Assembly (NCBI GenBank): GCA_015520605.1
Contig: WAPT01000001.1
Coordinates: forward strand, 5,428 to 69,427
DNA from: Nanobdellati archaeon
GTDB lineage: Archaea; EX4484-52; WAPT01
DNA length: 64,000 nt
Direction: 5' to 3'
Positions 1-50,153 of the stretch are shown here, piece by piece. Position numbers and translations under genes: made by a program. Below the pieces are notes generated by a model. That model had not been told where the DNA came from. It did no database searches and was given only the letters and a program-made list of their open reading frames with translations. Position 1 is the stretch's first letter; each line of letters opens with the position of its first letter.

Positions 1-1038
1 CATTCTCCTTTAGGCACAACTAGTGAAATAAATCTAACAAATTTAACTGCCCCACGCGAGGATTCCGGAGTGTGGGGTGCAATCGCGAATTTGAACGTTA
101 GTTTCCCATCAATTGAAATAGGAAAATACACTCTCAGTTTTCATGCAATTTCTAAATTAAACAACGGTGAGGAAGTATATGAACAAATGCCATCACCTTC
201 AGCGGATATAGAGATTACCGGAATTCCCTTTGAAATTTGCACCTCTAAAGTACAATATCATTTTATAAATGAATGTTATGAGAACCTTTCATCAATTTTC
301 AAGGAAAATGAAAACATATATTTTGTGATGAAAATCGGATCAAATACTGATCCGGTTTCCGGTCTGAAACCAACGGATTTCATATTAAAAGATAGTGTAA
401 AAAACTTATCTGCAGAATTTCAACAAAATTTAATAGAAATTTCTCCCGGTACATACATTAGCAATATTTCCGCATCCTCCATAGGAGTGGGTAGGTACAT
501 ACTTGAAGTGGAGGTTTACAATGGCAACGTGTTAATTTCCTCCACCTCTCTTTCCGTGTACATCCAGCCATCCAAAAAGCACAAATTGCCCAACATAACG
601 GTGAGTGTTGAATCCCGACCCAACTTTATCGATACGTTCGTTCATGGTTGCGGGATGTTTGGAGAAGTGAACTTATCGGGAAGATATGCACTCACGGGCC
701 TTGTCTTCTGCGATGGTCACGCAATTTATTATGAGAACTCAAGCGATCATCTTGAAGTTGTGAAATCCGCATCCCCTCACAGAACGTTGCTAATCTTCAC
801 GAGAGATGCCCCCCAAAAGGTTGTGAAAAAACTCTCAAAAATTGAAAACGGGAAGTTTGATTTCACAGCCTTCGGGTATAAAAGCGACAGGGATCGAACC
901 TTAAGGATCATTATCCGGAGAAATTTCGAGATCGAAAATTTTATGATTCTCCGTCCGGGTAGGTATACTCTAAGGATTACGCATATGGGTCTCCTTGGCA
1001 ATGTGCCACGCCTATCTATAGAACCTTCATCCTCCTGA
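1..1038 (+). CDS. Hypothetical secreted or surface protein, C-terminal part. The reading frame is open to the window edge, so the gene is 5'-truncated here.
   Basis: Frame 1 has no stop from nt 1 to 1038. There are no recognisable catalytic motifs. The sequence is beta-rich with several N-x-S/T sequons, and the listed ORF start at nt 70 is internal. Confidence 0.4.
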   Translation, partial: HSPLGTTSEINLTNLTAPREDSGVWGAIANLNVSFPSIEIGKYTLSFHAISKLNNGEEVYEQMPSPSADIEITGIPFEICTSKVQYHFINECYENLSSIFKENENIYFVMKIGSNTDPVSGLKPTDFILKDSVKNLSAEFQQNLIEISPGTYISNISASSIGVGRYILEVEVYNGNVLISSTSLSVYIQPSKKHKLPNITVSVESRPNFIDTFVHGCGMFGEVNLSGRYALTGLVFCDGHAIYYENSSDHLEVVKSASPHRTLLIFTRDAPQKVVKKLSKIENGKFDFTAFGYKSDRDRTLRIIIRRNFEIENFMILRPGRYTLRITHMGLLGNVPRLSIEPSSS

Positions 1039-6056: not shown

Positions 6057-6131
6057 CCTTCCAAAAATCTTTAAATAATCCAAAAACCACAGTTTATACT
6101 GTACTTCAAAAATCAAAGGAGGGGTTGAAAG

Positions 6132-6506
6132 ATGCCTAAGGAAGAAGAATTGAAGGAAGCACTCTCAGATCTCAAAAATGTTTCAGGTGTGGTGGGAAAT
6201 GCTGTTGTGACTCCTGATGGCTTGCTTGTATTTTCAGATCTTCCAGAGACAGTAAACAAGAGGGCTCTAGCAGCAATGGCAGCGGCTATTGTGGGTACGG
6301 GCATGCAGGTGACTAAAGAGCTTAACATTGGAGCTTTAAGCCAAGTAATGGTGGACGCTCAAGAGGGTAAATTCATCTCCATTAGTGTAGGTTCTGATGA
6401 AGATTCTCCGATTCTCTCAACGCTCGTCCAGCCGAAAGCGAACTTAGGTTTGGTATTGCTGGAAATGGAAAAGGCGGCGAAAAAAATCCAGAAAATCATG
6501 GCATGA
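6132..6506 (+). CDS. Roadblock/LC7 domain protein (MglB-like GTPase regulator)
   Basis: The 124-aa protein has the Roadblock/LC7 pattern of an alpha-beta-beta-alpha-beta-beta fold ('VSGVVGNAVVTPDGLLVFSDLPE...'). A GGAGG ribosome-binding site sits at 6118-6124, immediately downstream of the GTPase gene. Confidence 0.65.
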   Translation: MPKEEELKEALSDLKNVSGVVGNAVVTPDGLLVFSDLPETVNKRALAAMAAAIVGTGMQVTKELNIGALSQVMVDAQEGKFISISVGSDEDSPILSTLVQPKANLGLVLLEMEKAAKKIQKIMA

Positions 6507-7173
6507 CCTCTATTCCGCTTTCACTTATTTTGAATTTAAGAGTTATTGGTAGGTTTCTCGTTTCCCTCATTCTGTTTATTTTTAACAGTCTTATATCATT
6601 CTCCATAATGAAATTTATCGTTCCGTCTGTAAGGCTGTTAAGGGCTGTGACGACGTCTGGTGTGTGCATACCCTCCTCCACGGCTATCAGTATGGTCATG
6701 CCTGCTCCTTTCAGCCTGGCAGATAGCATGGAAATGAATCTCAGACAGAGGTCTTTCGGCACGAAGAGGAACATGGTCGAAAGTGAGTCCATCACAACCC
6801 TTTTCACATTCTGATTTCTCATTTCCGTCAGGGCCTTTGTTACAGCTATGGTGAAGTTGGTGAGATTTGCTGGATTGACCACCTCCTTTCCCTCTTCAAC
6901 CCCCATCTGCCAAGAATATGCGTCTATAAACTTCAGAGGCTTCCCGTTTACATCCCACCCAAAAGATTTCATGCTGTTGATTATTTCCTCGGGAGATGCA
7001 TTAAGAGTGATGTGTATTGCTCCCTCCCCATTCTTTAGTCCCTCATAAATGAACTGGTTACAGAAGGTTGTCTTACCTGCCCCAGGCACTCCCACGAGGA
7101 GTATGGATGCTCTTTCCGGTAGTCCACCACCCATAGCTTCGTCGAGCTTCTGAATTCCGGTGGCTATTCTCAT
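6496..7173 (-). CDS. KaiC-like single-domain RecA-superfamily ATPase (COG0467 type)
   Basis: The N-terminus 'GIQKLDEAMGGGLPERASILLVGVPGAGKTT' has an intact Walker A. A Walker B-like 'RVVMDSLS' follows. The 225-aa size is typical of archaeal KaiC/ArlH-like proteins. Confidence 0.75.
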   Translation of the reverse strand: MRIATGIQKLDEAMGGGLPERASILLVGVPGAGKTTFCNQFIYEGLKNGEGAIHITLNASPEEIINSMKSFGWDVNGKPLKFIDAYSWQMGVEEGKEVVNPANLTNFTIAVTKALTEMRNQNVKRVVMDSLSTMFLFVPKDLCLRFISMLSARLKGAGMTILIAVEEGMHTPDVVTALNSLTDGTINFIMENDIRLLKINRMRETRNLPITLKFKISESGIEVMP

Positions 7174-12647: not shown

Positions 12648-14084
12648 CTACTCAATTGTCTTTGCAAGGTATTTCTGGTAAGCGGAATAAAGGGCTCTCT
12701 TGCACACGCTTGTGTTTATGCACTCAAAGCCGAAGACATACTCAAGTGTTTTTTCATTAAAATAATCTTCAAGCTCTACTCCAAGCTTTCTTGCCGCAGC
12801 TATCCAACCTGTATAGCTCAGCCCGTACCTATATGCTTGGAGCAGCATCTTTCCAACCTTCTCATCTCCGATACTAAGCAAGGTCTGTATGGCTGCTCTT
12901 TTGGGGTTGGTAAAGTGTGCTCTTACTCTAAGCTTTTTCCTCAACAGTTTGTTCCTTCCACTGAGAACATCCACACCCTCAAAGGGTGCGAACTGCAGTG
13001 GTGTGTGCGGCTTTGGAATGAAGATGGAAAATGTGCACTTAACTCTCATCCCCGCAAGAGAGGAGCACAGGTTTACAAGATCGGCGCAAGCTTCAAGATC
13101 CTTGTCCTGCTCAGCGGGCAGACCCACCATAAAATAGAGTTTGAGATTTCTTGCTCCGCACAGCTTTGCTGTCCTCGCAGCCCTCAAAACATCCTCATCG
13201 CTGAACTTTTTGCCGAGCTCAAATCTTATCCTTTCGGAACTTTCCGGAGCGATTGTAATCGTTCTTGGCTTTATCAGCTTTAGCACATCTCTATATTCGT
13301 GGATGTCCGAAACATGAATGGACGGCATGCCAATCTCATAACCCGCCTTACGAAGGTAGGTGATTATATCTGGTAATTCTGGATTTGAGAAGGGATCCGA
13401 GCCTATAAGCATTACCTTCTCAACACTTCCCTTCTTTACTCTACTCAAAGCTAACCTGATATCATCCAGACTTCTGTATCTGCACCTCCCTCTAGTCCAT
13501 CCAATGAGGCAGAAGAGACATCTCCTTCTGCAACCTCTCTGCACCTCTATCATTACCGTTCCATCCACAGTGGCAAGAGGTGATCTCTCACCCTCCAGAT
13601 CACATACTGCTGTCTTTATCTCACATCTCCCTTCATAAAAAACATTTTCATGCCACACCACCGTGTCCATAATCTCTTGGAGTGTTAGGGTTCCCTTCCT
13701 TTCCTTCTTCTCCTTCAGAGTACGGAAAAGCGCCTCTCCATCTCCTATGAAAAAGAAATCAGCAACATGCTTTAACGGTAGAGGGTTGACTGTTGTTGGA
13801 CCTCCAACAAGAAGTTTTGGAAAGTCTCTATTTTCCTTTTGAAGACTCAGCCCCCCTTTATCTATCATCTGAAGAAGTATCGGATAATTGTTCTCGTAGT
13901 GAGAGCTAACCATTATCAGCCTGTGTTCCGACATTAGCCCGAGGTTTATGGAGTCTGCAAAGTAAACCCTGCTTCTTATTCCGAGTCTCTCGAGTTCTTC
14001 TTGCAGGAAATGGATGGATAGCGCCTCTCTTCCGACTTTTTTCTCCGCTGGATAAATTATACCAACCACATCGTTCATTTTCAA
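12648..14084 (-). CDS. Radical SAM protein with an N-terminal B12-binding-like domain
   Basis: The motif 'MIEVQRGCRRRCLFCLIGW' has C-x3-C-x2-C spacing. A Rossmann-like N-terminal domain typical of B12-binding rSAM enzymes precedes it. The gene lies 24 nt downstream of a pilin-like gene on the same strand. Confidence 0.7.
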   Translation of the reverse strand: MKMNDVVGIIYPAEKKVGREALSIHFLQEELERLGIRSRVYFADSINLGLMSEHRLIMVSSHYENNYPILLQMIDKGGLSLQKENRDFPKLLVGGPTTVNPLPLKHVADFFFIGDGEALFRTLKEKKERKGTLTLQEIMDTVVWHENVFYEGRCEIKTAVCDLEGERSPLATVDGTVMIEVQRGCRRRCLFCLIGWTRGRCRYRSLDDIRLALSRVKKGSVEKVMLIGSDPFSNPELPDIITYLRKAGYEIGMPSIHVSDIHEYRDVLKLIKPRTITIAPESSERIRFELGKKFSDEDVLRAARTAKLCGARNLKLYFMVGLPAEQDKDLEACADLVNLCSSLAGMRVKCTFSIFIPKPHTPLQFAPFEGVDVLSGRNKLLRKKLRVRAHFTNPKRAAIQTLLSIGDEKVGKMLLQAYRYGLSYTGWIAAARKLGVELEDYFNEKTLEYVFGFECINTSVCKRALYSAYQKYLAKTIE

Positions 14085-14108
14085 TGATTTTTCAAGTAAA
14101 TTTTAATT

Positions 14109-14819
14109 TCAGCTCGCTTCTCTTGTTTCCAGCTCGAGATAATCAGCATAGCTGGGGAGGGTTATGAGAAGTTCAAACTCCGTATCATTGACCACAAGAT
14201 GTGCTATCACCCTTCCTCGCGGTAGATTATTTCCGTACATTTCGGCATAAATATAGCCTGTAGCATTTTCAAACACACTATCCACAAGGACCCTCACCGT
14301 GCCATTAAACGTAACGTTTTCCTTTAACAGTTTTACACCTGCGATGATCCTGCTCATATTTATCTGCTGCCAGTTATCGGGGGTTCCTGCCTTGGTTATG
14401 TTCACCTCAAGATATGAGTTCCTCATTGTGATCACATTCCCATTATCCACCACACTAACATCGTCACCTTCCGCTATTATGATGTTCCCTTCCCGAATCA
14501 TAGCACTCCTTGCCACAAGCGGAGTGTCTGTTTTCATCCTGAACTCTATTAGATTTGAGCGGTTATCAATGATCAGCACACCCCTCCTTATAACCAGCGG
14601 GACAACTCTGGTGGAACCCTTACCTTCAGCGATGATTTCCTGGAGCGATGTCGCGAGATCATGCATCATGGTCTTAGCACTTTCAAACGCCGCTTTGTCC
14701 CTAAGTGATTGAACGTAGGGAGTTATCGTGCTTATTAGGATTGCTATCACAACGATTGCGATGGTCATGTAGAGCGTTCCCGCAAGAAGGGGCGATACAG
14801 CCTTTCTTTTTCTCAGCAT
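14109..14819 (-). CDS. Type IV pilin-like protein with a class III signal peptide
   Basis: The N-terminus 'MLRKRKA|VSPLLAGTLYMTIAIVVIAILIST' has a basic stretch and an Ala at the putative cleavage site, followed by an about 22-aa hydrophobic segment. The mature part is beta-rich with N-x-S/T sequons. Confidence 0.5.
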   Translation of the reverse strand: MLRKRKAVSPLLAGTLYMTIAIVVIAILISTITPYVQSLRDKAAFESAKTMMHDLATSLQEIIAEGKGSTRVVPLVIRRGVLIIDNRSNLIEFRMKTDTPLVARSAMIREGNIIIAEGDDVSVVDNGNVITMRNSYLEVNITKAGTPDNWQQINMSRIIAGVKLLKENVTFNGTVRVLVDSVFENATGYIYAEMYGNNLPRGRVIAHLVVNDTEFELLITLPSYADYLELETREAS

Positions 14820-14945
14820 GATTTTTTGTTAGATTCCAACAAATATATGTGTATGTGTATTCGCGCTCAGAGTGATCTTCACGATCAATCAAGAATTGAT
14901 GGCAAGGTCGCAGCTGCTGAGATTCCGGAAATGCAAGTCCGTTTT

Positions 14946-15170
14946 TCACTTCACATGGATATCGACAATTTCACCCAGCCGGATCACAGATTTTATTATT
15001 TCTGACTTGTCGGTAAAAAGGCTTACCATTCCGTCCCTGTGTTTCTTTAATACAATCTCCACTCGTTTTTCCACCGGACTGGCAAACACAGTTCCGTTGG
15101 GAAGCTCTATTTTTTCGTAACCTTCCAGTTCCAGCTCCGGTTCATTCTTCAGCACAATCTCCACGATCAT
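14946..15170 (-). CDS. Small hypothetical protein (74 aa) embedded in the pilin-like cluster
   Basis: This is an ORF with no signal peptide and nothing overlapping it. No motif was recognised. Confidence 0.3.
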   Translation of the reverse strand: MIVEIVLKNEPELELEGYEKIELPNGTVFASPVEKRVEIVLKKHRDGMVSLFTDKSEIIKSVIRLGEIVDIHVK

Positions 15171-15292
15171 TAACTTTACTAGTAGTTAAACGTTTATAAA
15201 GATTTTAAATATTTCACACGCAACCCGCGGATCTCAAAACAGGGACATCGCGAGATATTCCCGTAGCATCATCCCTGTAGTGTGTGACCGGT

Positions 15293-15877
15293 TCAGCAGG
15301 GTGTGAGTGTTCTTGTGGTGATGATCCTGGTGTTTCCCGCAAGATCGGTGGCGATCACCACAATACCTCCGTAATATTCTGTCTTCATCTCAGCGCGGAA
15401 GCACATGTCTGTATCCACACTATATACCCTAAAAGTGATATTTGCGGGAAGCGTTATGGAATAAGTCACCTCCTCGCGTTTCACATCCCAGGGTAGAAGG
15501 GGCGATGCAAAGACAATATTCCCATTCACATCCAGATAAAAGTTGGTTGTGTTTTCATTTCCATTGAAGAAAAGAAGGTCATAACCTGTGCCGTTTCTCT
15601 CCACCTCAAAAACGAACACGCTGACATTTTCACCTCTCTCTTTTAGTAGGGAAGATACCTCATCGTAAAATGAGACCACGGCATATCCATCGGTTTGCTT
15701 ATCAGCCAGCATCGCTACCAGCGATTGGTCGAGGAATGTTCTGAACGCTTCCCTGCTCGTTGAGATGGTCAGAAAACTCGTTCTTCTTCCCATCCGAGGT
15801 ACGGTCAGCAGTGATGACAGAACGAGGATGACCATTAAAGCCCCTATGATGAGCCACTGTCCCTTCCTCACTTTCAT
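15293..15877 (-). CDS. Type IV pilin-like protein with a class III signal peptide
   Basis: 'MKVRKG|QWLIIGALMVILVLSSLL' matches the classic archaeal prepilin peptidase site (K/R-G followed by Q and a hydrophobic stretch). The start overlaps the upstream gene by 4 nt. Confidence 0.55.
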   Translation of the reverse strand: MKVRKGQWLIIGALMVILVLSSLLTVPRMGRRTSFLTISTSREAFRTFLDQSLVAMLADKQTDGYAVVSFYDEVSSLLKERGENVSVFVFEVERNGTGYDLLFFNGNENTTNFYLDVNGNIVFASPLLPWDVKREEVTYSITLPANITFRVYSVDTDMCFRAEMKTEYYGGIVVIATDLAGNTRIITTRTLTPC

Positions 15878-16503
15878 TCGATTACCACCCTGATCTCGGC
15901 GTAATTTTGAGCATCCATAACCACGGGATAATAAACCTGTGCCACGTTATCAGTATCCTGGGTGTTGTTCCCACACACAGATTCCTTTCTCACCACGATC
16001 CAGGCCGGGTTGGTGCAAGAAACGGAAAGGTATACCAGCCCCTCCAGACTGGGTGGAATTTCGATTCTGTAAAGTCTTGTGACCGTATAGTTCCCGAGTG
16101 TTGTGGAATTAACCTTAAAAAAGCACGATGTCAGGGTGGTCTCCACCGGGATGACGTCTATGTATGCTGTTTCGTTCTCCGCTATAATAAGATTAAGGGA
16201 TGTGGAAAGGTTCGCAACTATGGCTTTTAAGCTCAGCATACCGATGTCAACATAGACCTTTTTTACCCCCACGTACGGTTGAACTATTCTCTTTATGCCT
16301 CCGGCATCACAGCTGATGGTATAATTTTGCAGCAGTGAAGCCCGTGCTGCGAAATCCATAATCTTCGAAAGCTTTTCGGTGTATATCCAATTGTCCCCCG
16401 TTTCTTTTTCCGGTAGAAGCAGCCACACCACAAAAGAGATAAGCAGCATTCCTGCTATAACACCCTCAATTATGTGAATGTAGCCCTTACGTCCTATCTC
16501 CAT
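15874..16503 (-). CDS. Type IV pilin-like protein with a class III signal peptide
   Basis: 'MEIGRKG|YIHIIEGVIAGMLLISFVVWLLL' shows R-K-G then a hydrophobic stretch containing a Glu, as in pilins. It overlaps both neighbours by 4 and 10 nt. Confidence 0.5.
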   Translation of the reverse strand: MEIGRKGYIHIIEGVIAGMLLISFVVWLLLPEKETGDNWIYTEKLSKIMDFAARASLLQNYTISCDAGGIKRIVQPYVGVKKVYVDIGMLSLKAIVANLSTSLNLIIAENETAYIDVIPVETTLTSCFFKVNSTTLGNYTVTRLYRIEIPPSLEGLVYLSVSCTNPAWIVVRKESVCGNNTQDTDNVAQVYYPVVMDAQNYAEIRVVIE

Positions 16504-17693
16504 AACCTGATCACCATATCGACCGGAGTTATTGTTCCGTTCTCATAAAGCAATATGCCGGTGTATTTTCTCACCCAGATGTTGGTGAAGAGAGGTTCCT
16601 TTTTCCCGAATGTGAAATTCCCGATGGTTACATTGAAATCGAAGCCTGTAACCCCCGAGTCCTCCTTTATTTTCTCATATGTGCTGTTCTTGATGCTGTT
16701 TAACGTGTTATCGCTCCAGATTCTCAACAAATAACGTCCTGCAACCGCCGTGGAGGAGTTGGTGAACAGCAAATTCTCACAATCTCCACAATTAACAGCA
16801 CCATCACAGAAGTATATTTCTGTTCTTTTTGTGTTCTCAAAGCTCACCCGTATGGTCAGGGTTCCAACCCTTACATTGCATGCGGAACTGTCGGTCAGAA
16901 AGTTCATGTTTACGCCCGTGTTGGTATCGTAAAGGGAAATGAAACCGGTGCTCACAGCATAATTCCAGCCGTTTACCAATGTGGTTGATGATGACCCATC
17001 ATACAATGTATCAAAGTCCCTTACAAGCACGAATGTGTAATTCTGGGGGTTCTCGGATATCAGCCATAGTCTCGGTGAGTAGGCATCCATGATGAGTTCC
17101 GTTGTGTTGAAGTCCAGCTCGATGAACGAGCACCCGTAGATAGAGCGCTGAAAGTTTGAGGGCATGAGCACGGGTTGAAATAGATAATTTGTGCCGTTGA
17201 AGTCCAGGGACGTTATGGAAGCTGTGCCGTATCCCACTTCTAGATACGTGTTCAGTATGCTATTCGTCCCTTCCCCGAGGTCGGACACGCATCCGTATGT
17301 TTTTATATCCCCGGAAGATACGCAGAGAAACGGCAATCCCGTGGTCACCACACTCCTTATTTTCCCGTCATGCACACCGACGGGAAGTGTTCTATTTTTC
17401 TGAAAGCATGTGGTTATGGATGAGTTAGCGGCTGTAAACTCAACTGGGTAATGCTCAACGCGGCATCCATTCACGACCCCCATATATGCCTCTGCGTCCG
17501 TGCTGAAAGCTTCGGCGACCCTTAGTATCTGGGCTGCCGCTAATCCTGGATCGTGTCTCTGAAAGGTGACCAGATACTTCGCGTTAAGAAATTTTAATGA
17601 AATTGTGAGCGTTGTCAGAAAGATGATCATTGCCAGAGTCCATTCAAAATATGTTGTGGCCTTTCTCGAATCTCTTATGGTTGTTCTTCTCAT
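16494..17693 (-). CDS. Type IV pilin-like protein with a class III signal peptide. This is the largest member at 399 aa and carries many N-glycosylation sequons.
   Basis: 'MRRTTIRDSRKA|TTYFEWTLAMIIFLTTLTISL' is the signal region. Sequons include NSS, NRT, NGT, NYT and NTT. Confidence 0.5.
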   Translation of the reverse strand: MRRTTIRDSRKATTYFEWTLAMIIFLTTLTISLKFLNAKYLVTFQRHDPGLAAAQILRVAEAFSTDAEAYMGVVNGCRVEHYPVEFTAANSSITTCFQKNRTLPVGVHDGKIRSVVTTGLPFLCVSSGDIKTYGCVSDLGEGTNSILNTYLEVGYGTASITSLDFNGTNYLFQPVLMPSNFQRSIYGCSFIELDFNTTELIMDAYSPRLWLISENPQNYTFVLVRDFDTLYDGSSSTTLVNGWNYAVSTGFISLYDTNTGVNMNFLTDSSACNVRVGTLTIRVSFENTKRTEIYFCDGAVNCGDCENLLFTNSSTAVAGRYLLRIWSDNTLNSIKNSTYEKIKEDSGVTGFDFNVTIGNFTFGKKEPLFTNIWVRKYTGILLYENGTITPVDMVIRLWR

Positions 17694-17716
17694 GCTCCCA
17701 AAACCCCCTCCTCCCG

Positions 17717-18277
17717 TTATCTTATTCTTATGTTTATCATAGTCGAATTGTACACCTTCCCTTCATTTCTCAATACAAGCGTTGTGGATCCCTCCGATAA
17801 AAACAGATTTCTTTCGAATGAACACGATTCGCACGGTATCATGATCCTGATCACAAAGTCTTTCGATAACCAGTCCTGCCCGTACCCGAACGTCGGGACG
17901 GCATCATCCGGAACCTCGCCAAAGTAAATGGACTTGCTCCTCCTTTCTATCTTTGAGTTATCTTTGGCTGTAAAAAAAATGTACATCTTGGATTCCAGTG
18001 GAGTAACAACGCTAACACCTGCTGATGTGTTCTGCCAGCTGGAATTATAGGTGGAGAAAAGCAGGATTCCGGCAGAATAGCTGTCAGTATTTCCGTAAAC
18101 TAAGGGTACCTCATCGCTCCTGTGGGTTTCGGTGAAGTTGCTCAAAATTTCAACTGAAAGCGACCGTGCTGAGATGTTCTGCGCCTTAACAAAGACGGAC
18201 AAGAGCGTGATGAGCACAGCTCCGACTATGACAAGCATGAATGAGATGAGAAGCGCTGAAGCTCTTGCTGTTTTCAT
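17717..18277 (-). CDS. Type IV pilin-like protein with a class III signal peptide. It is the first gene of the cluster.
   Basis: 'MKTARA|SALLISFMLVIVGAVLITLLSVF' is the signal region. Its promoter must lie in the 44-65 nt divergent gap at 18278-18342. Confidence 0.5.
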   Translation of the reverse strand: MKTARASALLISFMLVIVGAVLITLLSVFVKAQNISARSLSVEILSNFTETHRSDEVPLVYGNTDSYSAGILLFSTYNSSWQNTSAGVSVVTPLESKMYIFFTAKDNSKIERRSKSIYFGEVPDDAVPTFGYGQDWLSKDFVIRIMIPCESCSFERNLFLSEGSTTLVLRNEGKVYNSTMINIRIR

Positions 18278-18321
18278 GAAGAGGTAAATGGATTCGGAAC
18301 AATAAAAAATTTGACAACCAC

Positions 18322-19668
18322 ATGCTTTATTTGGTGATAAAAATGAATGAGAGCGTTTTGCTTGAAAACTGTTCGTGGATAGTGACGCAGAACGGAAATC
18401 GGGATGTTTTGAGGGACAAATACATAATCATCGAGGACGGTAAGATAAAGGCGATTACGGGTCATGTTGAAAGTAGCAGAAGATTCGACAGGGTCATAGA
18501 TTGCAAAGGCAGGGTTGTTCTTCCCGCACTGATAAACGGGCACACGCATGCCGCAATGACCCTTATGAGAGGGTACAACGACGATGCGGAGCTTCACGAA
18601 TGGCTGGACTCAGTGTGGAGGGTCGAGGCAAAGCTGACAGGAAGGGATGTTGAAGCCGGTACGTTGCTTGCCTGTCTTGAAATGCTTAAAACGGGCACGT
18701 GCTGCTTTGTGGACATGTACTTTTTCATGGAGGATGCTGCAAAAGCTGTTGAAAAAGCTGGGATAAAGGCCTTGCTTGGCTACGGCATGCTTGATTTTGG
18801 TAATGAAGAAAAGAGAAAGGAAGAGCTCAAGGAGTGTAAAAGGCTCCTCGAGCTTCTCAAGAAAAAAAGCAACAGAAGACTAAGAGGTGTTGTGGCCCCC
18901 CATGCAATTTATACATGCTCCGCTGAGCTACTGCAGGAAGCCATGGAAATAGCAAAAAGTTATGGCGTGCTTTACACAATTCACCTTTCCGAAACAAGAA
19001 AGGAGGTGCACGAGTGCTTCAGAACTCACAGAAAGTATCCAGTTGAGTATCTTGATGACCTCGGAGTGCTCAATGACAGGTTTGTTGGGTTCCATGCAGC
19101 TTGGCTTACAAGAAACGAGATATCCCTCCTTGCGAGAAAAGGTGGGGGGGTGGTGCATTGCCCTGTGTCTAACATGAAGCTGGCGACGGGTGGTGCTTTT
19201 CCGTTCAGAGAGTACCTCAAAGCGGGAGTGCTCACAGCGCTTGGCACGGATGGAGCGTGCTCAAACAACAGCCTGAACATGCTTGAGGAGATGAAATTTG
19301 CCGCACTCCTACAGAAGTGGTTCAGATGGAACGCAAGGGAAATGAGCGCACAGCAAGCTTTGGACATGGCAACTGTAAACGCGTCAAAATTGTTCCGGCT
19401 CAATAATGGTAGTGTCGAACCCGGAAAAGATGCGGATCTCCTCGTTCTAAATGCAAGCTCATGCTTTATGCTCCCTTATCATAATGTGGTTTCAAACATC
19501 GTTTACGCTTCTTCCTACTTCACCGTTGAGCACGTGTTGATCGATGGTGAGGTTGTGATAGAGCAGGGGAGGCATACCGCTTTAGATGAAGAGGAGGTTA
19601 TAAGCACCTTCCTGAAGAGGGTCGAAAGCCTAATGGAAAGAGCCGAAACGGGGGATGAGAAGCAATGA
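18322..19668 (+). CDS. Amidohydrolase of the 5-methylthioadenosine/S-adenosylhomocysteine deaminase (TRZ/ATZ) family. The start is probably the Met at 18343.
   Basis: The metal-binding 'PALINGHTHAAMTLMRGYNDD' motif is present, with 'HLSET' and 'GTDGACSNN' blocks. The 448-aa size fits. Confidence 0.7.
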   Translation: MLYLVIKMNESVLLENCSWIVTQNGNRDVLRDKYIIIEDGKIKAITGHVESSRRFDRVIDCKGRVVLPALINGHTHAAMTLMRGYNDDAELHEWLDSVWRVEAKLTGRDVEAGTLLACLEMLKTGTCCFVDMYFFMEDAAKAVEKAGIKALLGYGMLDFGNEEKRKEELKECKRLLELLKKKSNRRLRGVVAPHAIYTCSAELLQEAMEIAKSYGVLYTIHLSETRKEVHECFRTHRKYPVEYLDDLGVLNDRFVGFHAAWLTRNEISLLARKGGGVVHCPVSNMKLATGGAFPFREYLKAGVLTALGTDGACSNNSLNMLEEMKFAALLQKWFRWNAREMSAQQALDMATVNASKLFRLNNGSVEPGKDADLLVLNASSCFMLPYHNVVSNIVYASSYFTVEHVLIDGEVVIEQGRHTALDEEEVISTFLKRVESLMERAETGDEKQ

Positions 19669-20336
19669 GAGCTCTTGCTCTTCTCTCCGGGGGAAAGGAC
19701 AGCTGGTATGCTGCCTACCTGGCATCACTCATGGGTATGGAGTTAAAGCTAGCGGTAACCTTCATCCCGGAAAGCAAGGACTCTTACATGCTGCATTACC
19801 CAACTCTTGACCTCGTCCCTATTCAGTGTAAACTTGCCCGTATATCCCAGCTCAGTTTTGGTGTGTCCGGAGTGAAGGAGAAGGAAGTTGAGGAAATGAC
19901 ATCCCATCTCAGAAAATTGGTGGATGAGTATGATATAAAGGCCTTGGTTTGTGGCGCGGTTCAAAGCGAGTACCAGAAAATGCGCGTGGAGTTCATCGCC
20001 GAAGAGTTAGGATTGATTAGCTACGCCCCGTTATGGAAGAAAGATGAGCGCAACCTTCTGGAGGAGATTGTAAGAGATGCGGGCTTCAGATTCCTTGTGG
20101 TGAGGGTTGCCGCCGAAGGATTAGAAAATTGGATAGGAAAGATTGTTGACAACCGGAATTTTGATAGCTTCCTGAACGATTTGGAAAAGGCGAGGGCAAA
20201 TCCAATAGGAGAGGGAGGAGAGTACGAAACTCTCGTGATTTATATGCCGCTCTTTTCGAATGAGATTAGAATCAAAGGGTTTGATGTACTAAAGTATGGA
20301 AATTCCAAAGAAATCAAGATAAAAGGTGTGAATTAG
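19665..20336 (+). CDS. PP-loop ATPase resembling diphthine-ammonia ligase (Dph6/MJ0570-like)
   Basis: The N-terminal 'ALLSGGKDS' PP-loop and the 223-aa size fit this family. It overlaps the upstream gene by 4 nt. Confidence 0.55.
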   Translation: MRALALLSGGKDSWYAAYLASLMGMELKLAVTFIPESKDSYMLHYPTLDLVPIQCKLARISQLSFGVSGVKEKEVEEMTSHLRKLVDEYDIKALVCGAVQSEYQKMRVEFIAEELGLISYAPLWKKDERNLLEEIVRDAGFRFLVVRVAAEGLENWIGKIVDNRNFDSFLNDLEKARANPIGEGGEYETLVIYMPLFSNEIRIKGFDVLKYGNSKEIKIKGVN

Positions 20337-25762: not shown

Positions 25763-27427
25763 ATGGTGTTTTGTGCGAGAGGGATTTATGATAAAGTAAT
25801 GATTGTAGGTATCGTATTGTCTGTCATTTTTTGCGCTTCCACCGCGTTCGCACTCGAGAACCATAATTTAATGTTCTGGAATGGTGATATGCAAATATTC
25901 TTGAACAAAAATGTCTATTCTGCCGGAGAGAATCTAAAAGCGACAATCAGAATTTCTAATGGTGAGAATTATTTTATCACGGATGGAAAAATTGTTATTG
26001 AGATTGTGTACGGATGTGACACGCCCACATATCCTGCGCAGGTTTCCGATTGCGACGATGTTATTTACGAAAAGGTGCTTAGAGACATTCACATCCCTCC
26101 GAAAGGAAACAGAGAGATAAATTTCAGCTACTCATTACCGCAGGATCTGCGTGAGGGTACCTACAGGGTTGACGCATACTTTACTGCAAATAGAGCACCG
26201 GTAAAGGGGATTCACTTCATCTTTCTGCCGGGAGCTTATCAGGACTTCCGGGTGGAGAACACGGCGGGAGACTACCCATCTTTGAAGATACTGAGGACAA
26301 AAACAGTTTTTAATGGTGAGCGTGGACAGGTCGCTGCTCCGGTCCAGCCGGGTGGTGTGATCAACGGGACTGTGTGGGTTGAAGCTCTCGACGACAGCGC
26401 GATAGGTAAGAACTACATGCTGAGATTGCGGTTGTGTTCATGGGATGACACCAACTGCGATGGATATAACCTAACGAAACGGTTTTATCTGGACTCGAAA
26501 GTTCAAAGTATATGGGTGAAAATGAAAGCCCCGACCAAACCGGACGCATACGCCATAAGAATTGAGATAGTGGATGAAAACGAGAGGTTGCAGTCCCTTT
26601 ACAGAAGCAGGATAATCGTGACCGGGATAACGGCCAAGATAAGGAAGGTTCAGCTCGCTTCAGTGGTGTTGAGGAAAGGTACACCCACGGAACTCAATGT
26701 GCTTGTGGGTACATCTCCGGATCATTATACCGAACCCGAGGTTAGAAATGTTGTTTGTGCGGTGAAGATCACCGATAAACCATCCGAAAAACTTGTGTTT
26801 ACTGGTAAAAAGACCATAGAAAAACTCTCTTCAAAAGACAACATAATTTTCGTTCCCCTGAGTTTCTCGATAACCCCGAACACGGATACGAAAAATTTCA
26901 GGGTGTGTATCGAGCTGCGTTCTGAAGCGGGAAAACTTTTTGATAAATATTGTTTTGATGTGAACGCCAACGACTATAAGGATGTACTTCTACCCGATTA
27001 TAGTGCCAAGCTTTTGAAATACTTTGAGAACAACCGCACAGCGGTGCTTGAAGTCTGCGCTAGGTACAGCATTATTGATAAGGATGCCAACATAATGGCC
27101 GATCTTCTTCTTTACAAAAATAACGGAATCATAAAAATGGTTCGCAATGTTAAAATAAATGGATGTAAGCTGTTCTCCTTCGATAAAATTGAGGGAGAGC
27201 CTGGCGTTAATTACACGTTGGTTTTAAACGATAAGGTAAACGATCTGCAGTATATTTTTAACTTCTCACCACGGAGCGCTTCAGAAAATACGGCAGTTCC
27301 GGCATCCCGGGAACAGAGGACGGGAATCGGTAACGGTAAACTTGTGCTGTGCATAATGTCCCTTGTCGCTGTCGTGGTTATTATCGCTTTTATCATGAGG
27401 AACTGGAAAGGTGGTGAAAATGCATGA
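25763..27427 (+). CDS. Secreted, C-terminally membrane-anchored surface protein (554 aa). It is translationally coupled to the downstream giant gene.
   Basis: An N-terminal signal or TM segment reads 'MIVGIVLSVIFCASTAFALE'. The body is beta-rich. The C-terminus 'LVLCIMSLVAVVVIIAFIMRNWKGG' is a TM anchor with a basic tail. The last 17 nt overlap the next ORF, and AT content is higher than the local average. Confidence 0.5.
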   Translation: MVFCARGIYDKVMIVGIVLSVIFCASTAFALENHNLMFWNGDMQIFLNKNVYSAGENLKATIRISNGENYFITDGKIVIEIVYGCDTPTYPAQVSDCDDVIYEKVLRDIHIPPKGNREINFSYSLPQDLREGTYRVDAYFTANRAPVKGIHFIFLPGAYQDFRVENTAGDYPSLKILRTKTVFNGERGQVAAPVQPGGVINGTVWVEALDDSAIGKNYMLRLRLCSWDDTNCDGYNLTKRFYLDSKVQSIWVKMKAPTKPDAYAIRIEIVDENERLQSLYRSRIIVTGITAKIRKVQLASVVLRKGTPTELNVLVGTSPDHYTEPEVRNVVCAVKITDKPSEKLVFTGKKTIEKLSSKDNIIFVPLSFSITPNTDTKNFRVCIELRSEAGKLFDKYCFDVNANDYKDVLLPDYSAKLLKYFENNRTAVLEVCARYSIIDKDANIMADLLLYKNNGIIKMVRNVKINGCKLFSFDKIEGEPGVNYTLVLNDKVNDLQYIFNFSPRSASENTAVPASREQRTGIGNGKLVLCIMSLVAVVVIIAFIMRNWKGGENA

Positions 27428-30400
27428 ATCGAAAAACATGATGGGTGTCGGAATCATTATTTTGGTAAGCATGTTTTTTGGCATTGCGATTAGCTCGAAA
27501 ATTTCCTTTGGGTGGTGGAATGATGATTGGAAATACAGGATACCGATAAACGTGAGCTATGATGGATCCTCAGAGATCGATAATTATCAGCTCAAATTGG
27601 TGATCAATTATCAGGAGGGCATGCAATGCGATTTTCGAGACATACGGTTCACACAAGTTATTAACGGTGATGAGATCGAGATCCCCTACTTTATTGAGAA
27701 TTATACTGATTGTCAAGAAGCATTTGTTTGGATTAAGATGATAAAATTGACTCCCGGAGAAAATACAGTGTATCTTTATTTTGGAAATCCTAATGTTTCC
27801 TCAAAGAGTTCCAGTAGCGATGTGTTCCTCGGAAAAATAAGCAACGTTGCCGGGTGTTGGTACTTTGATAAAGAGACAAACAACATCGTCATAGATTGTT
27901 CGGGAGTGGGGAACCCGATGACTCTGTACAATGGTGCTACCCTGGGGGATGGAAAATACGGATATGCCCTCGAGCTGGACGGCAATGACGATTATGCAAG
28001 CTCAGACCTTAACGGAATCAACTTCCAAAAAAATGAGATCGCAATCCTCTTCTGGTTGCTTGATGATATGGAAAGCAATGGCAATAGGGAATGGTTTATA
28101 AATAAGCTGACCACTCAACCTTCCACGGGTTTTGGATTTTATACAACAGACACAGACGAGAACAACCTTAGAAGGCTCGTTTTTTCTGTCGGTAGTACTG
28201 CGGCTTCCAAAGAAGTCAGCATCATGATACCGTCTCACACATGGGTGAGTGTTGGGGGAGTTGTAAGACTCTATAACTCCACCCATTATAGGGTTGAGTT
28301 ATGGATAAACGGGAGTATGGTTAATTATACCTACATAGAAGACGCCTCGCTTAAACTGGAGAATACGGAGCCGCTAACGATAGGTATGTTCAACAACAGC
28401 TTCTATGCTTACGGAAGGGTGGACGAGCTCTATATTTTCAACACATCTTTAGACGGAAACACTATAGAACAACTTTCGGTTGCTCGCGGTGTGGTTCTGC
28501 CAGAAGAGCCGCTAACCTTATATCTTACACAATACGCATCCCCGCAGCCAGCATACACCATCGGAGCCATCGAGAAGTATCTCAAAGCTGTTGGTGAGCC
28601 ATGTACAAGTGACGACGAATGTGAAACTGGACACTGCGCTGTCGATTACGATGGGAATGGGGCATGGTGCATGCCCAAAACATCCTGTGCTCATAATGGT
28701 ATAGAGTATAAGGACGGTAGCTATGCACCGGAGTGTTTATCCAAGACATCCACATGGAAATGTTCTGCTGGAACATGGCAGGAATTCAATTGTGGCAGGT
28801 GGAGTGTGTGTAAGAGCGGAAAATGTTTATTGAAGGATAGTGATGGGGATGGTGTTCCGGATAGGGACGATCTGTGTCCCGGAACTCCGGCTGGGTGTAA
28901 AGTGTATGCCAACAATGGATGTCCGAAGGTACCGTTCAAATACCACATAAAAAACAATATATCCTCATCATGTCCCGGATCTTCCATACCCGTAGATCCC
29001 GAGCACTACTGTCTGAGCACATCCCAAGACCCAAAGATCAAATTTTATGTTGGGACCGTGCTTGCAAACTCTGAGCCCTACTGCGATCCTCTGTATGGCA
29101 CTGAGGGATGGCATGATGTAGAAGACGGAAGAAATTATTGCGAATTCCCAATCCCTGTAAGCATAAACCCCGGAAAATACACATTGTATGCCGAGTATGA
29201 GCTTGGGGGGAGAACCTACAAGGATGTCGTAGAGTCCGGGTTCGTGGTGAAAAGTTCGTGTTCCACGAGAACCCGATGTAACCATGGGGGGCACATGGAA
29301 TCCAACCCCACGTACAACATCGCATTCTCTAACGGCCAGTGTGAGGTGTCCGGAGGCATCTATTATTGTAAGAACGGAACCACCGTTTCACTAACCTCAA
29401 TATCCAGAGTTGTCCCGCACTGTAGTGATGGTGCATACGCGTCAGCAAGACCTCCTGGATTGCTCGCATGGGTGTATTCCGGTAACGTATTTTTGGCTGA
29501 AAAAGACAACAAGTACGCTGGATGTTCGCTGTGGAATCCTTCAGTTAACGACAGGAGATATTTATTCAGTCTAAAAGTTGGGTTTAGGTGGGCGTGCAAC
29601 ATTGGATGGGCAAGCGGGGCGAAATACAACCATATAAACAACATATACACATTTAAAAAACCTGGCAAATACATGCTTTACGTTGATTTGATAAACGCTG
29701 TGTGTGATTCTCCAGATTATATCTGTCCGACCAACTGTAGTGGATACAAGTGTTTATGCTACATAGGAACTATGAAAGGTGATCAGTGGGGGTTCCTAAA
29801 CCTCGGAAAATACGAAATTGCGGTAGTTGACCCAGAGCTGAAGTTTATAAGCACTCCCAGTAGCCCCATCAAACTGGATGGGTCTCCATCGATAACCTTG
29901 ACATGGAAAATCAGGAATACCGGCATTGGCGATATCGACGTTAAAGTAGCTCCCGTATGTCCGGCGGGGTGGAAATGCGTGGTTGATCCAACCCGTGTCA
30001 GAAATGTGAAGGAAAACAACAATGTTACAATTACACTCACGGTCTACAACAAAAAGCCACCGGCAATGGTAAATGCCAAGCGGATTCCAGTTGGAATAAA
30101 CATAAGTTATTTTGATTCTTACGGACTCTATCCAGAAAAAAGAACAGGAAATTCCGTAATTCTCATCCTAGATAATCGGCCCCCGGTCGTGGGGTTCAGC
30201 GCACCTTCGGGATATGGCTGGAGCGCTTCGGATCTGCCATTCAAAATAACCTGCGATGACAACCCATACACCAGCTACGGAACTTATGGCGGATGCAATA
30301 AAATATATTATCTGGTCGTGAATTCGTCTCAAAAATGTCCGCAGGATCTGAACAGTTATAAAGTATATTCATCTAACCCTCAGGAGACGCTAACGTTTTT

Positions 30401-31415
30401 GGGCAAAATAACATGCCCTGAAGGAACCGTTTGCAAAAAGAAGGTCTGCTATGCGGCGGAAGACAGATTTGGGTACAGGAGTCCGATAACTGCTAGCGAT
30501 GAGTTCAGGATTGATAAACAGCCACCGGTCATCAACGCCACGGTTCTACCCTCCCCTGTGCTCTCATCGTTCGGCCCAGAGAAAGAAAAGGTCTTCATCA
30601 TTTTAAGATGTGACGATGGTGACGGGAGCGGATGTGCTATAACTAAAATCTCCAGCACAGCACTTTTCTCCTCCAAACCATGTGAGTTGCAAGGAGATGG
30701 CGAGACCATATGCGAATTTATCGCTCCCGACTGTACTGGTTTAATCAGCAGAACACAGCCCTATTCTGTAGAAAGTGAAGACATGGTTCACAATTCAATT
30801 TCACATACTTACGAATATGAAGTCAAATTTAATACAGGATGCAGTTGTTACACAGGCAACGAATGTTATAGCGGTTCTTGTGTTGATGGTAGATGTAAGG
30901 GGGTTATAAATGTAACGCAGGGAGGAAATGTTGTTCAACCACAACGACCTTCATCCAACCCGATCGAAGTAAATATTTCACACACGTCCCTTCGGTTGAT
31001 GGTTGGGGAGGTTTATCGGGGAGTTATAGATGTCAAGAACAACAATAACTTCATGGACACTGTTGTGCTACACATAAACACCAATCCCGAATATCCATGG
31101 AAACACTGGGTGTATTTTGAGGGTGAAAAATTCTCCATGAACGGTGATCAGTTCGTTATCAACCTGAAGGGCGAGGAGGAAAGGAGAGTTGTGTTTATAA
31201 TAGAACCCAACATGGTAACCATTTCGCCGATAACCGTGAATATTACCGCTGAAGGTTTGATCTCTGGAGGAAAGTCAACACAAACCATGAAAGTGGATGT
31301 TGTGGCACATGGAAGCAACGGGGCAAAAAGTTCACTACCTGGAATTGAGTTTTACAATGTATGGGTGATCGCACTGATGGCTGCGTTCCTCTCCTATTTA
31401 AATTTCCGGAAATAA
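27411..31415 (+). CDS. Giant (1334 aa) cell-surface protein with DUF2341-like, LamG/ConA-like, thrombospondin type 3-like and cysteine-rich modules plus a C-terminal TM anchor
   Basis: 'WKYRIPINVS...DFRDIRFT' matches the DUF2341 pattern. 'LELDGNDDYASS' is LamG-like. 'DSDGDGVPDRDDLCPGTPAG' is a TSP3-like Ca-binding repeat. Multiple Cys-rich blocks follow, and the C-terminus is 'LPGIEFYNVWVIALMAAFLSYLNFRK'. Confidence 0.55.
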   Translation: MVKMHESKNMMGVGIIILVSMFFGIAISSKISFGWWNDDWKYRIPINVSYDGSSEIDNYQLKLVINYQEGMQCDFRDIRFTQVINGDEIEIPYFIENYTDCQEAFVWIKMIKLTPGENTVYLYFGNPNVSSKSSSSDVFLGKISNVAGCWYFDKETNNIVIDCSGVGNPMTLYNGATLGDGKYGYALELDGNDDYASSDLNGINFQKNEIAILFWLLDDMESNGNREWFINKLTTQPSTGFGFYTTDTDENNLRRLVFSVGSTAASKEVSIMIPSHTWVSVGGVVRLYNSTHYRVELWINGSMVNYTYIEDASLKLENTEPLTIGMFNNSFYAYGRVDELYIFNTSLDGNTIEQLSVARGVVLPEEPLTLYLTQYASPQPAYTIGAIEKYLKAVGEPCTSDDECETGHCAVDYDGNGAWCMPKTSCAHNGIEYKDGSYAPECLSKTSTWKCSAGTWQEFNCGRWSVCKSGKCLLKDSDGDGVPDRDDLCPGTPAGCKVYANNGCPKVPFKYHIKNNISSSCPGSSIPVDPEHYCLSTSQDPKIKFYVGTVLANSEPYCDPLYGTEGWHDVEDGRNYCEFPIPVSINPGKYTLYAEYELGGRTYKDVVESGFVVKSSCSTRTRCNHGGHMESNPTYNIAFSNGQCEVSGGIYYCKNGTTVSLTSISRVVPHCSDGAYASARPPGLLAWVYSGNVFLAEKDNKYAGCSLWNPSVNDRRYLFSLKVGFRWACNIGWASGAKYNHINNIYTFKKPGKYMLYVDLINAVCDSPDYICPTNCSGYKCLCYIGTMKGDQWGFLNLGKYEIAVVDPELKFISTPSSPIKLDGSPSITLTWKIRNTGIGDIDVKVAPVCPAGWKCVVDPTRVRNVKENNNVTITLTVYNKKPPAMVNAKRIPVGINISYFDSYGLYPEKRTGNSVILILDNRPPVVGFSAPSGYGWSASDLPFKITCDDNPYTSYGTYGGCNKIYYLVVNSSQKCPQDLNSYKVYSSNPQETLTFLGKITCPEGTVCKKKVCYAAEDRFGYRSPITASDEFRIDKQPPVINATVLPSPVLSSFGPEKEKVFIILRCDDGDGSGCAITKISSTALFSSKPCELQGDGETICEFIAPDCTGLISRTQPYSVESEDMVHNSISHTYEYEVKFNTGCSCYTGNECYSGSCVDGRCKGVINVTQGGNVVQPQRPSSNPIEVNISHTSLRLMVGEVYRGVIDVKNNNNFMDTVVLHINTNPEYPWKHWVYFEGEKFSMNGDQFVINLKGEEERRVVFIIEPNMVTISPITVNITAEGLISGGKSTQTMKVDVVAHGSNGAKSSLPGIEFYNVWVIALMAAFLSYLNFRK

Positions 31416-49379: not shown

Positions 49380-50153
49380 TTATCTTCTCAGGAAACCAAA
49401 AAGCCTAGCGAGTAGTCCCCTCCTCTCAACCGACGGAGGTGTCCATTCAATACCCGCAAGTTTCGCTGCAAGCGCTTTTATTTCAATGGCCGCCCTCGAA
49501 TCCGGAGCGTACAAAACAAGAGGTGTTTTCGCTGCTATGGACTCATCAACTTTGGGTTCTTCCGGAACCATCGATATTACCGGGTATCCGAGCAGGGACT
49601 CGACATCATCCACTGTAAGCTCATGCTGTGTGTTCTTTACCCTGTTGAGCACAACCCCCAAAATGTGTGAGCCGAATTCCTCAGCCAGCTTGATAACCTT
49701 GAGAGCATCAGTAACTGAGGGCAAGTCAGGGTTGGTCACCACCAGCACTTCATCCGTGGCTTCCATCCCGGTGAGTGGTTCCCTTCCAAGCCCCGCAGCT
49801 CCGTCGAGAATGACAAAGTCGTGAGTTCCCAACAGCTCAAGAAGTATCTCAGTCAGTTTTTCTGGCTTGGTCGACTTAAGATCTGATATGGATATGCTCC
49901 CAGGGATTACTTTCAGTCCAGAAGGATGCACGTATATCGCTTCCTCGATGTTGGCCTCCCCCCTTAAAATGTCGTGTATGGTTTTAGGGTAGAGAGGCAC
50001 ACCGAGATGAAAACCGAGGTGAGGGGTCGTAAAGTTACCGTCTATGATTAGAGTGTTCATGCCAAACTCGTTCAGCGCCGCTCCGAGGTTTGCGGCCACA
50101 GTGGTTTTCCCCACACCACCCTTTCCAGAAGCAACACATATGAGCCTGGTCAT
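49380..50153 (-). CDS. minD: MinD/ParA-family ATPase
   Basis: The deviant Walker A reads 'ASGKGGVGKTTVAANLG'. The 257-aa size fits. Confidence 0.8.
   Translation of the reverse strand: MTRLICVASGKGGVGKTTVAANLGAALNEFGMNTLIIDGNFTTPHLGFHLGVPLYPKTIHDILRGEANIEEAIYVHPSGLKVIPGSISISDLKSTKPEKLTEILLELLGTHDFVILDGAAGLGREPLTGMEATDEVLVVTNPDLPSVTDALKVIKLAEEFGSHILGVVLNRVKNTQHELTVDDVESLLGYPVISMVPEEPKVDESIAAKTPLVLYAPDSRAAIEIKALAAKLAGIEWTPPSVERRGLLARLFGFLRR

Follow-up and report, generated by a model that had tools for sequence, protein, structure and literature searches.

Substrates of archaeal prepilin peptidases carry glycine, alanine or serine at position −1 of the processing site and a charged residue at position −2. 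The site reads KGQ in the Methanococcus EppA substrates EpdB, EpdC and EpdD, and RAVS in the Haloferax pilins PilA4-6 (PMC4371748). In archaea, the genes of a pilin set frequently lie apart from (in trans to) those for the ATPase and the TadC platform, and clade 1 type IV pilus loci have been reported to encode a pair of large DUF2341 proteins (PMC4858521). Here we analysed 64,000 nucleotides (nt) of contig WAPT01000001.1 (the window), which is part of a 110-kb metagenomic scaffold of a DPANN (Nanobdellati) archaeon; the region is also present in assembly GCA_027056545.1. The window contains five minus-strand open reading frames (ORFs), which were named P1–P5 in transcription order. We propose, with a probability of roughly 0.75, that they form a conserved minor-pilin module of an archaeal type IV pilus-like filament, comprising four proteins with class III (prepilin) signal sequences (P2–P5) and a secreted partner (P1), with the ATPase, platform and prepilin peptidase encoded elsewhere. 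The loci compared were labelled L001–L023, with L022 denoting the window's own contig including the stretch before the window start.

The Epd pilus of Methanococcus maripaludis (clade 1/system 1, with the minor pilins EpdA-D) resembles this locus in having several class III pilin-like proteins and a separately encoded major pilin. Further likenesses are the KGQ-type site of P4, an acidic residue near +5 in some of the proteins and the two TadC genes of a related locus (L023). Two platform genes are a hallmark of archaeal system 1 pili, which have been reported in methanogens, Thermococcales and DPANN archaea (preprint 10.64898/2026.04.22.720090). Unlike the Epd genes, to which no sequence similarity was detectable, the module has no ATPase, TadC or EppA gene beside it. 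The proposed major pilin here is a 151-amino-acid (aa) protein with a globular domain, whereas EpdE-type major pilins are ~70 aa and lack such a domain (preprint 10.64898/2026.04.22.720090). Haloferax volcanii (PilA1-6/PilB3-C3) likewise has its pilin genes away from the operon for the ATPase and platform, and the site of P5 (R/K-A|V-S) is the same as that of PilA4-6. However, the hydrophobic domain is nearly identical among PilA1-6, which are small major pilins that can replace one another, whereas the four proteins P2–P5 are larger, differ from each other and follow a fixed order.

In bacteria, GspH-I-J-K and FimU-PilV-W-X with PilY1 are tip complexes of minor pilins or pseudopilins. Like these, P2–P5 are four pilin-like genes of unequal size in one block with an acidic residue near +5 in most, and beside the block are a non-pilin secreted partner and DUF2341/PilY-like adhesin candidates (for the DUF2341–PilY link, see PMC4858521). 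The likeness is an analogy alone, with no detectable homology, and the archaeal proteins differ in their processing site (charged residue at −2) and in their putatively N-glycosylated beta-sandwich heads. The description of the arCOG02911 minor pilin (250–550 aa, all-beta, FlaFind-positive and prone to duplication; Makarova et al. 2016) agrees with the range of lengths, the internal duplications and the fusions found in the P5 family. DUF7287, DUF7288 and DUF7289 (with DUF7266) are uncharacterised Pfam families of archaeal pilin-like proteins. DUF7289 overlaps with the P5 family, and DUF7287 and DUF7288 match genes in the slots of P2 and P3 in related loci with the same gene order, but the window proteins were all under the gathering thresholds or had no match. 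A literature search on DUF7287, DUF7288, DUF7289 and DUF7266 found no publication.

Gene arrangement and composition

The five minus-strand ORFs had been proposed by a first-pass annotation made from the sequence alone, and their positions were confirmed. P1 (17717..18277, 186 aa) was the first gene of a tight P1–P4 unit. It was separated by 23 nt from P2 (16494..17693, 399 aa), the largest of the pilin-like proteins, which was preceded by a strong Shine-Dalgarno sequence (GGGAGGAGGGGG). P3 (15874..16503, 209 aa) overlapped P2 by 10 nt, and P4 (15293..15877, 194 aa) overlapped P3 by 4 nt. The distance from P4 to P5 (14109..14819, 236 aa) was 473 nt, and this gap contained a 74-aa ORF. A TATA-like box (ACATATATTT; 14841..14850, minus strand) was read from the sequence 22–31 nt upstream of the P5 ATG and was also found upstream of the P5 homologues in L009 and L006. 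It is probably the promoter of a P5 unit, which possibly also includes the radical SAM (S-adenosylmethionine) gene downstream. Given this gap and the conserved box, the five genes do not form the single tightly packed operon that had been suggested; tight packing is limited to P1–P4.

The genes around the block encoded the usual archaeal housekeeping functions (GatD/E, MCM, TBP, Topo VI and aminoacyl-tRNA synthetases). The GC content of the cluster was 0.456 compared to a window mean of 0.450, at the 64th percentile among equal-sized windows, and the earlier idea of an AT-rich island was dropped. The noted richness in N-x-S/T sequons was borne out: P1–P5 contained 32 sequons in 1224 aa, compared to 47 in 13,989 aa of cytosolic proteins, an approximately 8-fold enrichment (Poisson P = 3e-18). 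This was 2.5 times the number expected from composition, as shuffles that preserved protein composition gave 12.7 ± 3.1 sequons and none of 2000 reached 32. Based on this enrichment, P1–P5 are almost certainly extracellular glycoproteins. Upstream of P1 and overlapping with it, a 107-aa ORF (18274-18597, minus strand) was antisense inside an amidohydrolase gene, had no homologues or family matches and is probably spurious; the true divergent intergenic region between P1 and the amidohydrolase gene was 44 nt only.

Class III signal sequences

Published rules of the FlaFind type ([KR][GAS] followed by a hydrophobic stretch) were applied by eye and with a script. Each of the five proteins had one hydrophobic segment, located at the N-terminus and preceded by [KR][GA], in line with the short basic segment and hydrophobic stretch described earlier. 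In a signature scan of all ORFs in the window, the only real genes retrieved were this cluster, with P2 slightly below the hydrophobicity cut-off, and one gene for a 554-aa surface protein. The residues at −2/−1 were K-A in P2 and P5, K-G in P3 and P4, and R-A in P1. In P2–P5, K/R at −2 and G/A at −1 were kept directly before the ~20-residue hydrophobic segment across homologues with an overall identity of 16–30%. The sites of P4 and P5 exactly matched the published KGQ (EppA) and RAVS (PilA4-6) types, respectively. P2–P5 thus have the residues published for archaeal prepilin peptidase substrates and are predicted to be cleaved at these sites.

The N-terminus of P2 (SRKA|TTYFEW) has an acidic residue at +5. 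Its motif, [GA]|xxx[LFI][DE]W, was retained in L006, L007, L011 and L014 at 17–30% identity, with one homologue reading R-T-A at the site. P2 contained 10 sequons and 9 cysteines and had no match in Pfam. When the P2 and P5 families were compared with hhalign, the match had a probability of 49% (E 1.7e-4) and was within the beta-domain. In P3 (GRKG|YIHIIE), K(−2), G/A(−1) and the glutamate at +6 were invariant in six homologues that were 16–20% identical overall, and the family motif was K-[GA]|x[ILV][HN]x[ILV]E. P3 is fast-evolving, with 29 synonymous and 32 non-synonymous differences from its counterpart in L009. In P4 (VRKG|QWLIIGA), K(−2), G/A(−1), the glutamine at +1 and G(+6) were invariant in six homologues. 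The P3 and P4 families showed no significant hhalign match to the P5 family, though the K-[GA] motifs were in register.

The N-terminus of P1 looks to be of the Sec type or ambiguous. In the P1 homologues (34% identical in L006, 20% in L011), [KR][GA] was not kept, and their alignment revealed a conserved small-residue site past the hydrophobic core (VFA|M, VKA|Q) of the kind found in Sec signal peptides. For both reasons, P1 was not counted among the class III proteins. The five prepilin peptidase substrates of the first-pass annotation are thereby reduced to four candidates, P2–P5, whose motif is kept in homologues, and P1 is probably a secreted or anchored accessory protein. P1, which contained five sequons, had no match in Pfam or NCBIfam. 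In L011, a gene for a 5428-aa protein (L011:1-6685) was located directly upstream of the module; the C-terminal ~90 residues of this protein resembled P1 (E 1.7e-9), and a P1-like 173-aa gene (L011:6722-7243) came right after it.

Searches for archaeal pilin families, which had been proposed as a check, gave no match of P1–P5 at E ≤ 1 to the Pfam models Pilin_N (PF07790), Class_IIIsignal (PF04021) and Arch_flagellin (PF01917). In PDB profile searches, matches to pilins and archaellins were N-terminal and insignificant only (E 0.1–0.8).

Family and predicted structure of P5

P5 (N-terminus RKRKA|VSPLL) was the best conserved of the pilin-like proteins, and together with 13 homologues it kept the motif [KR]K[GA]|[IV][ST]P. 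Word-indexed searches retrieved only six P5 homologues and three P2 homologues, and genome and metagenome locus scans retrieved two loci each. An exhaustive HMMER search, in contrast, yielded a P5 family of 977 representatives, 405 of them at E ≤ 1e-10. Most members were full-length at ~235 aa, and some were internally duplicated. P5 itself matched DUF7289 (PF23960) with 17.2 bits (E 0.004), under the gathering threshold of 27 bits, while 54 of 96 aligned full-length homologues matched this family at E ≤ 0.01 (best 2.8e-10). By these profile scores, P5 is therefore a peripheral relative of DUF7289 rather than a scored member.

An AlphaFold2 model of P5 computed from an alignment of 96 distant homologues had a predicted local distance difference test score (pLDDT) of 93.6, compared to 35 with a six-sequence alignment. 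It consisted of a continuous 56-residue helix (residues 10–65) followed by an all-beta domain (beta-sandwich). Since the model combines a long N-terminal helix with a beta-domain, the predicted shape of P5 is pilin-like, yet the modelled head is not a known pilin head. Structure comparison likened it to the periplasmic beta-sandwich of membrane-anchored YidC and to carbohydrate-binding folds of the galactose-mutarotase-like, sugar-binding type. The mature domains of all five proteins had been described as beta-rich; P5 is the sole one for which this was verified.

The P5/DUF7289 module was also found as the N-terminal domain of giant proteins (P0110, 2261 aa; P0126, 2265 aa), with P0072 (458 aa) as another example, and fused to Laminin_G_3 (L015:10001-11377). 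The domain composition of these fusions suggests that they are pilin-anchored adhesins.

Conservation of the module and linkage to pilus machinery

The same genes were found in the same order in relatives with a P5 identity of 95% (L009), 68% (L005/L006), 50% (L007), ~33% (L011) and lower (L014). L006, L007, L011 and L014 each had the P2, P3 and P5 homologues in this order, and the slot of P4 was filled by a KGQ-type gene. In L019 and L020, the same slots were occupied by a gene above the DUF7287 threshold (29.2 bits in L019, cut-off 27), one that weakly matched DUF7288, one without an assignment and one like P5, and were located inside large arrays of genes for pilin-like and LamG proteins. 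The positional equivalents of P2 and P3 in L019, L020, L011 and L023 matched DUF7287 and DUF7288, the match of the P3 homologue in L011 to DUF7288 being weak (E 3.4e-4).

The window encoded no T2SSE ATPase, T2SSF platform protein or A24 peptidase, which confirmed the earlier observation that assembly machinery is missing nearby. In one distant relative, L023, the P5 family was linked to such machinery. This locus contained, in order, a T2SSE ATPase gene (97 bits), two T2SSF (TadC-like) genes, genes for two near-threshold Pilin_N pilins, a class III-like gene, P2-, P3- and P4-like genes, two other genes and a P5-family gene with 28% identity. The P2-like gene product started with ASQIDF (ASQLDW in the P2 homologue of L014) and had a weak DUF7287 match, the P3-like product started with LKTLEA (compare YIHTLEA for P3), and the P4-like product with NKG|QIF. 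The small pilins of L007 and L023 scored 19.8–23.5 bits on Pilin_N, near its threshold of 25.2.

In L007 and L011, a gene for a small canonical pilin (KKG|VSPLL and KKG|ITPII) came directly after the P5 homologue, in the slot that is held by the radical SAM gene in the window. The contig of the window encoded a canonical pilin of 151 aa (MKKKKA|ITPFLASVLL) ~1.4 kb outside the window start and ~16 kb from the module. It was the orthologue of the L007 pilin downstream of P5 (40% identity, E 5e-36) and was 29% identical to a pilin in the L023 pilus locus (E 6e-13). The 151-aa protein is the probable main subunit of the filament. Its gene belonged to a three-gene operon that extends across the window start (L022:12689-16096, i.e. 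~1.4–2.4 kb before the window start plus 70-1038 on the plus strand of the window). On the far side it adjoined a gene for a 176-aa pilin-like protein (RKKNG|IRIMMF), and on the other side the gene for a 793-aa DUF2341 surface protein (72 bits), the C-terminal part of which is encoded in the window at 70..1038.

A second DUF2341 gene was found at 25763..31415 (plus strand), where a pair of genes encoded the 554-aa surface protein and a 1334-aa protein with DUF2341 and Laminin_G_3 domains (Pfam). Both proteins had an N-terminal signal or anchor and a C-terminal transmembrane segment, and the pair was syntenic in L001, L002 and L005. We infer that this pair is associated with the pilin module, as candidate pilus-associated adhesins, and the DUF2341 proteins are possible adhesins of the filament. 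The first-pass annotation had overlooked the canonical pilin outside the window and both DUF2341 proteins, in the window and at its edge. A clade 1/system 1 pilus locus comprises an ATPase, two TadC platform genes, five or more minor pilins, two DUF2341 proteins, MinD and a dedicated peptidase. Of these, this contig has the putative minor pilin set, DUF2341 proteins of 793 and 1334 aa and, at 49380-50153, a MinD-like ATPase, with the two-TadC arrangement seen in L023 only.

Minor pilins or anchored surface glycoproteins

Several results weigh against a role of P2–P5 as minor pilins. P2, P3 and P4 had no significant match to any pilin family in the Pfam search, P5 itself was below the cut-offs of DUF7289 and DUF7266, and hhalign comparisons of the P2–P4 families with the P5 family reached a probability of 2.5–49% only. 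No ATPase, TadC or prepilin peptidase was encoded in the window or in the 78 kb of contig inspected (positions 31960-110279). Hidden Markov models built for P1–P4 missed the L023 genes, so that the equivalence of the latter is one of motif and order only. The Sec-like N-terminus of P1, the missing machinery nearby and the failure to reach the threshold of any pilin family would also be consistent with P1–P5 being uncleaved type II anchored or Sec-processed surface glycoproteins (of the envelope or S-layer, or of a short pseudopilus- or bindosome-like assembly bound to the membrane) instead of subunits of an extended pilus. The resemblance of the P5 head to membrane-anchored YidC and to carbohydrate-binding folds fits this as well, and archaeal class III proteins do include substrate-binding proteins that are not part of filaments (preprint 10.64898/2026.04.22.720090). 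We nevertheless consider such anchored glycoproteins unlikely: an invariant K-[GA] plus Q(+1) or E(+5/+6) is not required of a plain anchor, P5 has a 56-residue helix that far exceeds a membrane anchor, and members of the family are linked with canonical pilins in L007 and L011 and with a T2SSE/T2SSF/pilin locus in L023. The earlier proposal of a minor-pilin set with its assembly machinery encoded elsewhere is therefore retained for four of the five genes, based on the motifs, the P5 model and the linkage in L023, and given up for P1.

Radical SAM gene and 74-aa ORF

The radical SAM gene (12648..14084, minus strand) starts 24 nt downstream of P5, as noted before, if read from a TTG codon, and 30 nt downstream from the ATG favoured by gene callers. 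Its product contained a radical SAM core (PF04055, 69.9 bits) with the motif CRRRCLFC (CxxxCxxC), and the N-terminal, B12-like domain passed the threshold for Radical_SAM_N2 (PF19864, 52.8 bits). The radical SAM assignment of the first-pass annotation thus stands; the B12-binding label goes back to matches under the cut-off (PF02310, 19.2 bits vs 32.1; TIGR03960, 158 vs 462).

Co-expression with the pilin-like genes had been suggested, and the enzyme could in principle be a dedicated, co-expressed maturase, in which case the locus would be a pilin-modification system, comparable to AapX for the Aap pili of Sulfolobus. In the window, L009 and L005/L006, the gene follows P5 on the same strand at a distance of 24–30 nt, and the P5-like gene of L023 is also followed by a radical SAM gene. 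Seven contexts were compared, however, and adjacency of this gene was confined to those with at least 68% P5 identity; no radical SAM gene was found beside the module in the four more distant ones (L007, L011, L014 and L017). The enzyme of L023 (L023:9366-10451) belonged to an unrelated, PFL/NrdG-activase-like subfamily with Fer4_12 (BLASTP E 0.32) and was followed by housekeeping genes, and this second adjacency is probably a coincidence. The window enzyme is cytosolic by prediction, with no transmembrane segment, while pilin heads are extracellular. AapX is needed for Aap pili and has been described as a membrane-anchored Fe-S oxidoreductase of unknown function with homologues that have a flavin adenine dinucleotide (FAD) domain (PMC11178815); it is not described as a radical SAM enzyme, and for this reason the parallel is weak and AapX was dropped as a precedent. 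A maturase function is improbable on these grounds. The radical SAM gene, which was likewise dropped as a conserved partner of the module, is probably a neighbour without a functional tie to the pilins.

The 74-aa ORF between P4 and P5 (14946..15170, minus strand) had no signal peptide and was preceded by a TTTATAAA box of its own (15193-15200). It was found in the window and its 95% relative L009 only, with 9 synonymous and 6 non-synonymous differences between the two, and had no family match in Pfam or NCBIfam. Although it does lie inside the cluster as first described, it was absent from the 68% relative L006, where the gap between P4 and P5 was 35 nt. The ORF is probably a lineage-specific insertion and not part of the module.

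The least credible explanation of the cluster is that it encodes archaellum accessories (a stator or anchor like ArlF/ArlG) and not adhesion-pilus subunits, as the weak match of the 151-aa pilin to the NCBIfam ArlF model (E 2.8e-8, 34 bits) and the score of the L023 ATPase on the FlaI model (398 bits) are far under the cut-offs (110 and 550), no ArlB/C/D/E/H/I/J genes were found in the 78 kb inspected, and the two split TadC-like genes of L023 are a hallmark of system 1 pili, not of archaella.

Other genes in the window

A Diphthami_syn_2 gene was located at 19665-20336 (plus strand); members of this family have been reported to be co-transcribed with clade 1 pilus genes in methanogens (Makarova et al., PMC4858521). 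At 4914-7173, three genes resemble an MglA/MglB-like module: one for a KaiC-like ATPase joined to a small GTPase of the Ras/Arf type (4914-6056, plus strand), one for a Roadblock/LC7 protein (~6132-6506, plus strand) and one for a second KaiC-like ATPase (6496-7173, minus strand). An association of such genes with archaeal type IV pilus loci has been reported (PMC4858521). The Diphthami_syn_2, Roadblock, KaiC-like and MinD-like genes, all present in the window, are in line with the accessory genes described for archaeal type IV pili (PMC4858521). A ~180-aa protein (62828-63376, minus strand) with a long, highly basic N-terminus and one transmembrane segment was denser in sequons (3.85 per 100 aa) than any other protein of the window and had no family match. 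This DPANN genome fragment also encoded an alpha-mannosidase of glycoside hydrolase (GH) family 38 (1117-3726, minus strand) and a GH130 mannoside phosphorylase (48230-49375, minus strand), which may act in the salvage of mannose or N-glycans.

Discussion

As components of a minor-pilin module, P2–P5 would be cut by a prepilin peptidase after the conserved [KR]-[GA] and pulled out of the membrane by an ATPase/TadC machine encoded elsewhere in the genome. They would co-assemble via their N-terminal helices as low-abundance, 'minor' subunits, most likely serving as the tip or priming complex of a filament with the 151-aa pilin as its chief component. P1, and possibly both DUF2341 proteins, would be non-pilin partners displayed by this complex, comparable to PilY1 on bacterial minor pilins. 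Because the organism is a DPANN archaeon, the likely role would be adhesion to a surface or a host cell. A more specific version, argued by analogy, is that P2–P5 constitute a fixed four-subunit tip or priming complex, the archaeal functional counterpart of GspHIJK and FimU-PilVWX, that is conserved in DPANN-type archaea, and that the P5 head, P1 and the DUF2341 proteins recognise the host surface; we regard this as speculative.

The filament itself had been called undescribed in the first-pass annotation. In-trans pilin sets, at least five minor pilins and DUF2341 adhesin-like proteins are, however, already known in archaeal pili (PMC4858521). As the locus most likely encodes an accessory minor-pilin set of an ordinary archaeal type IV pilus, it does not represent a new kind of system: the families are uncharacterised (P1–P4 without a Pfam model), while the architecture and the in-trans layout are already established in archaea and no new type of machine is revealed.

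The attachment of DPANN archaea, which are mostly host-dependent, to their hosts is poorly understood. The locus adds four uncharacterised pilin-like families, conserved and fixed in their order, of which three lack a Pfam model. It links these families to a small canonical pilin and to adhesin-like DUF2341 proteins, and in one relative also to a pilus machine with two TadC genes. P2–P5 are therefore candidates for studies of minor pilins and tip complexes and for better models to detect pili.

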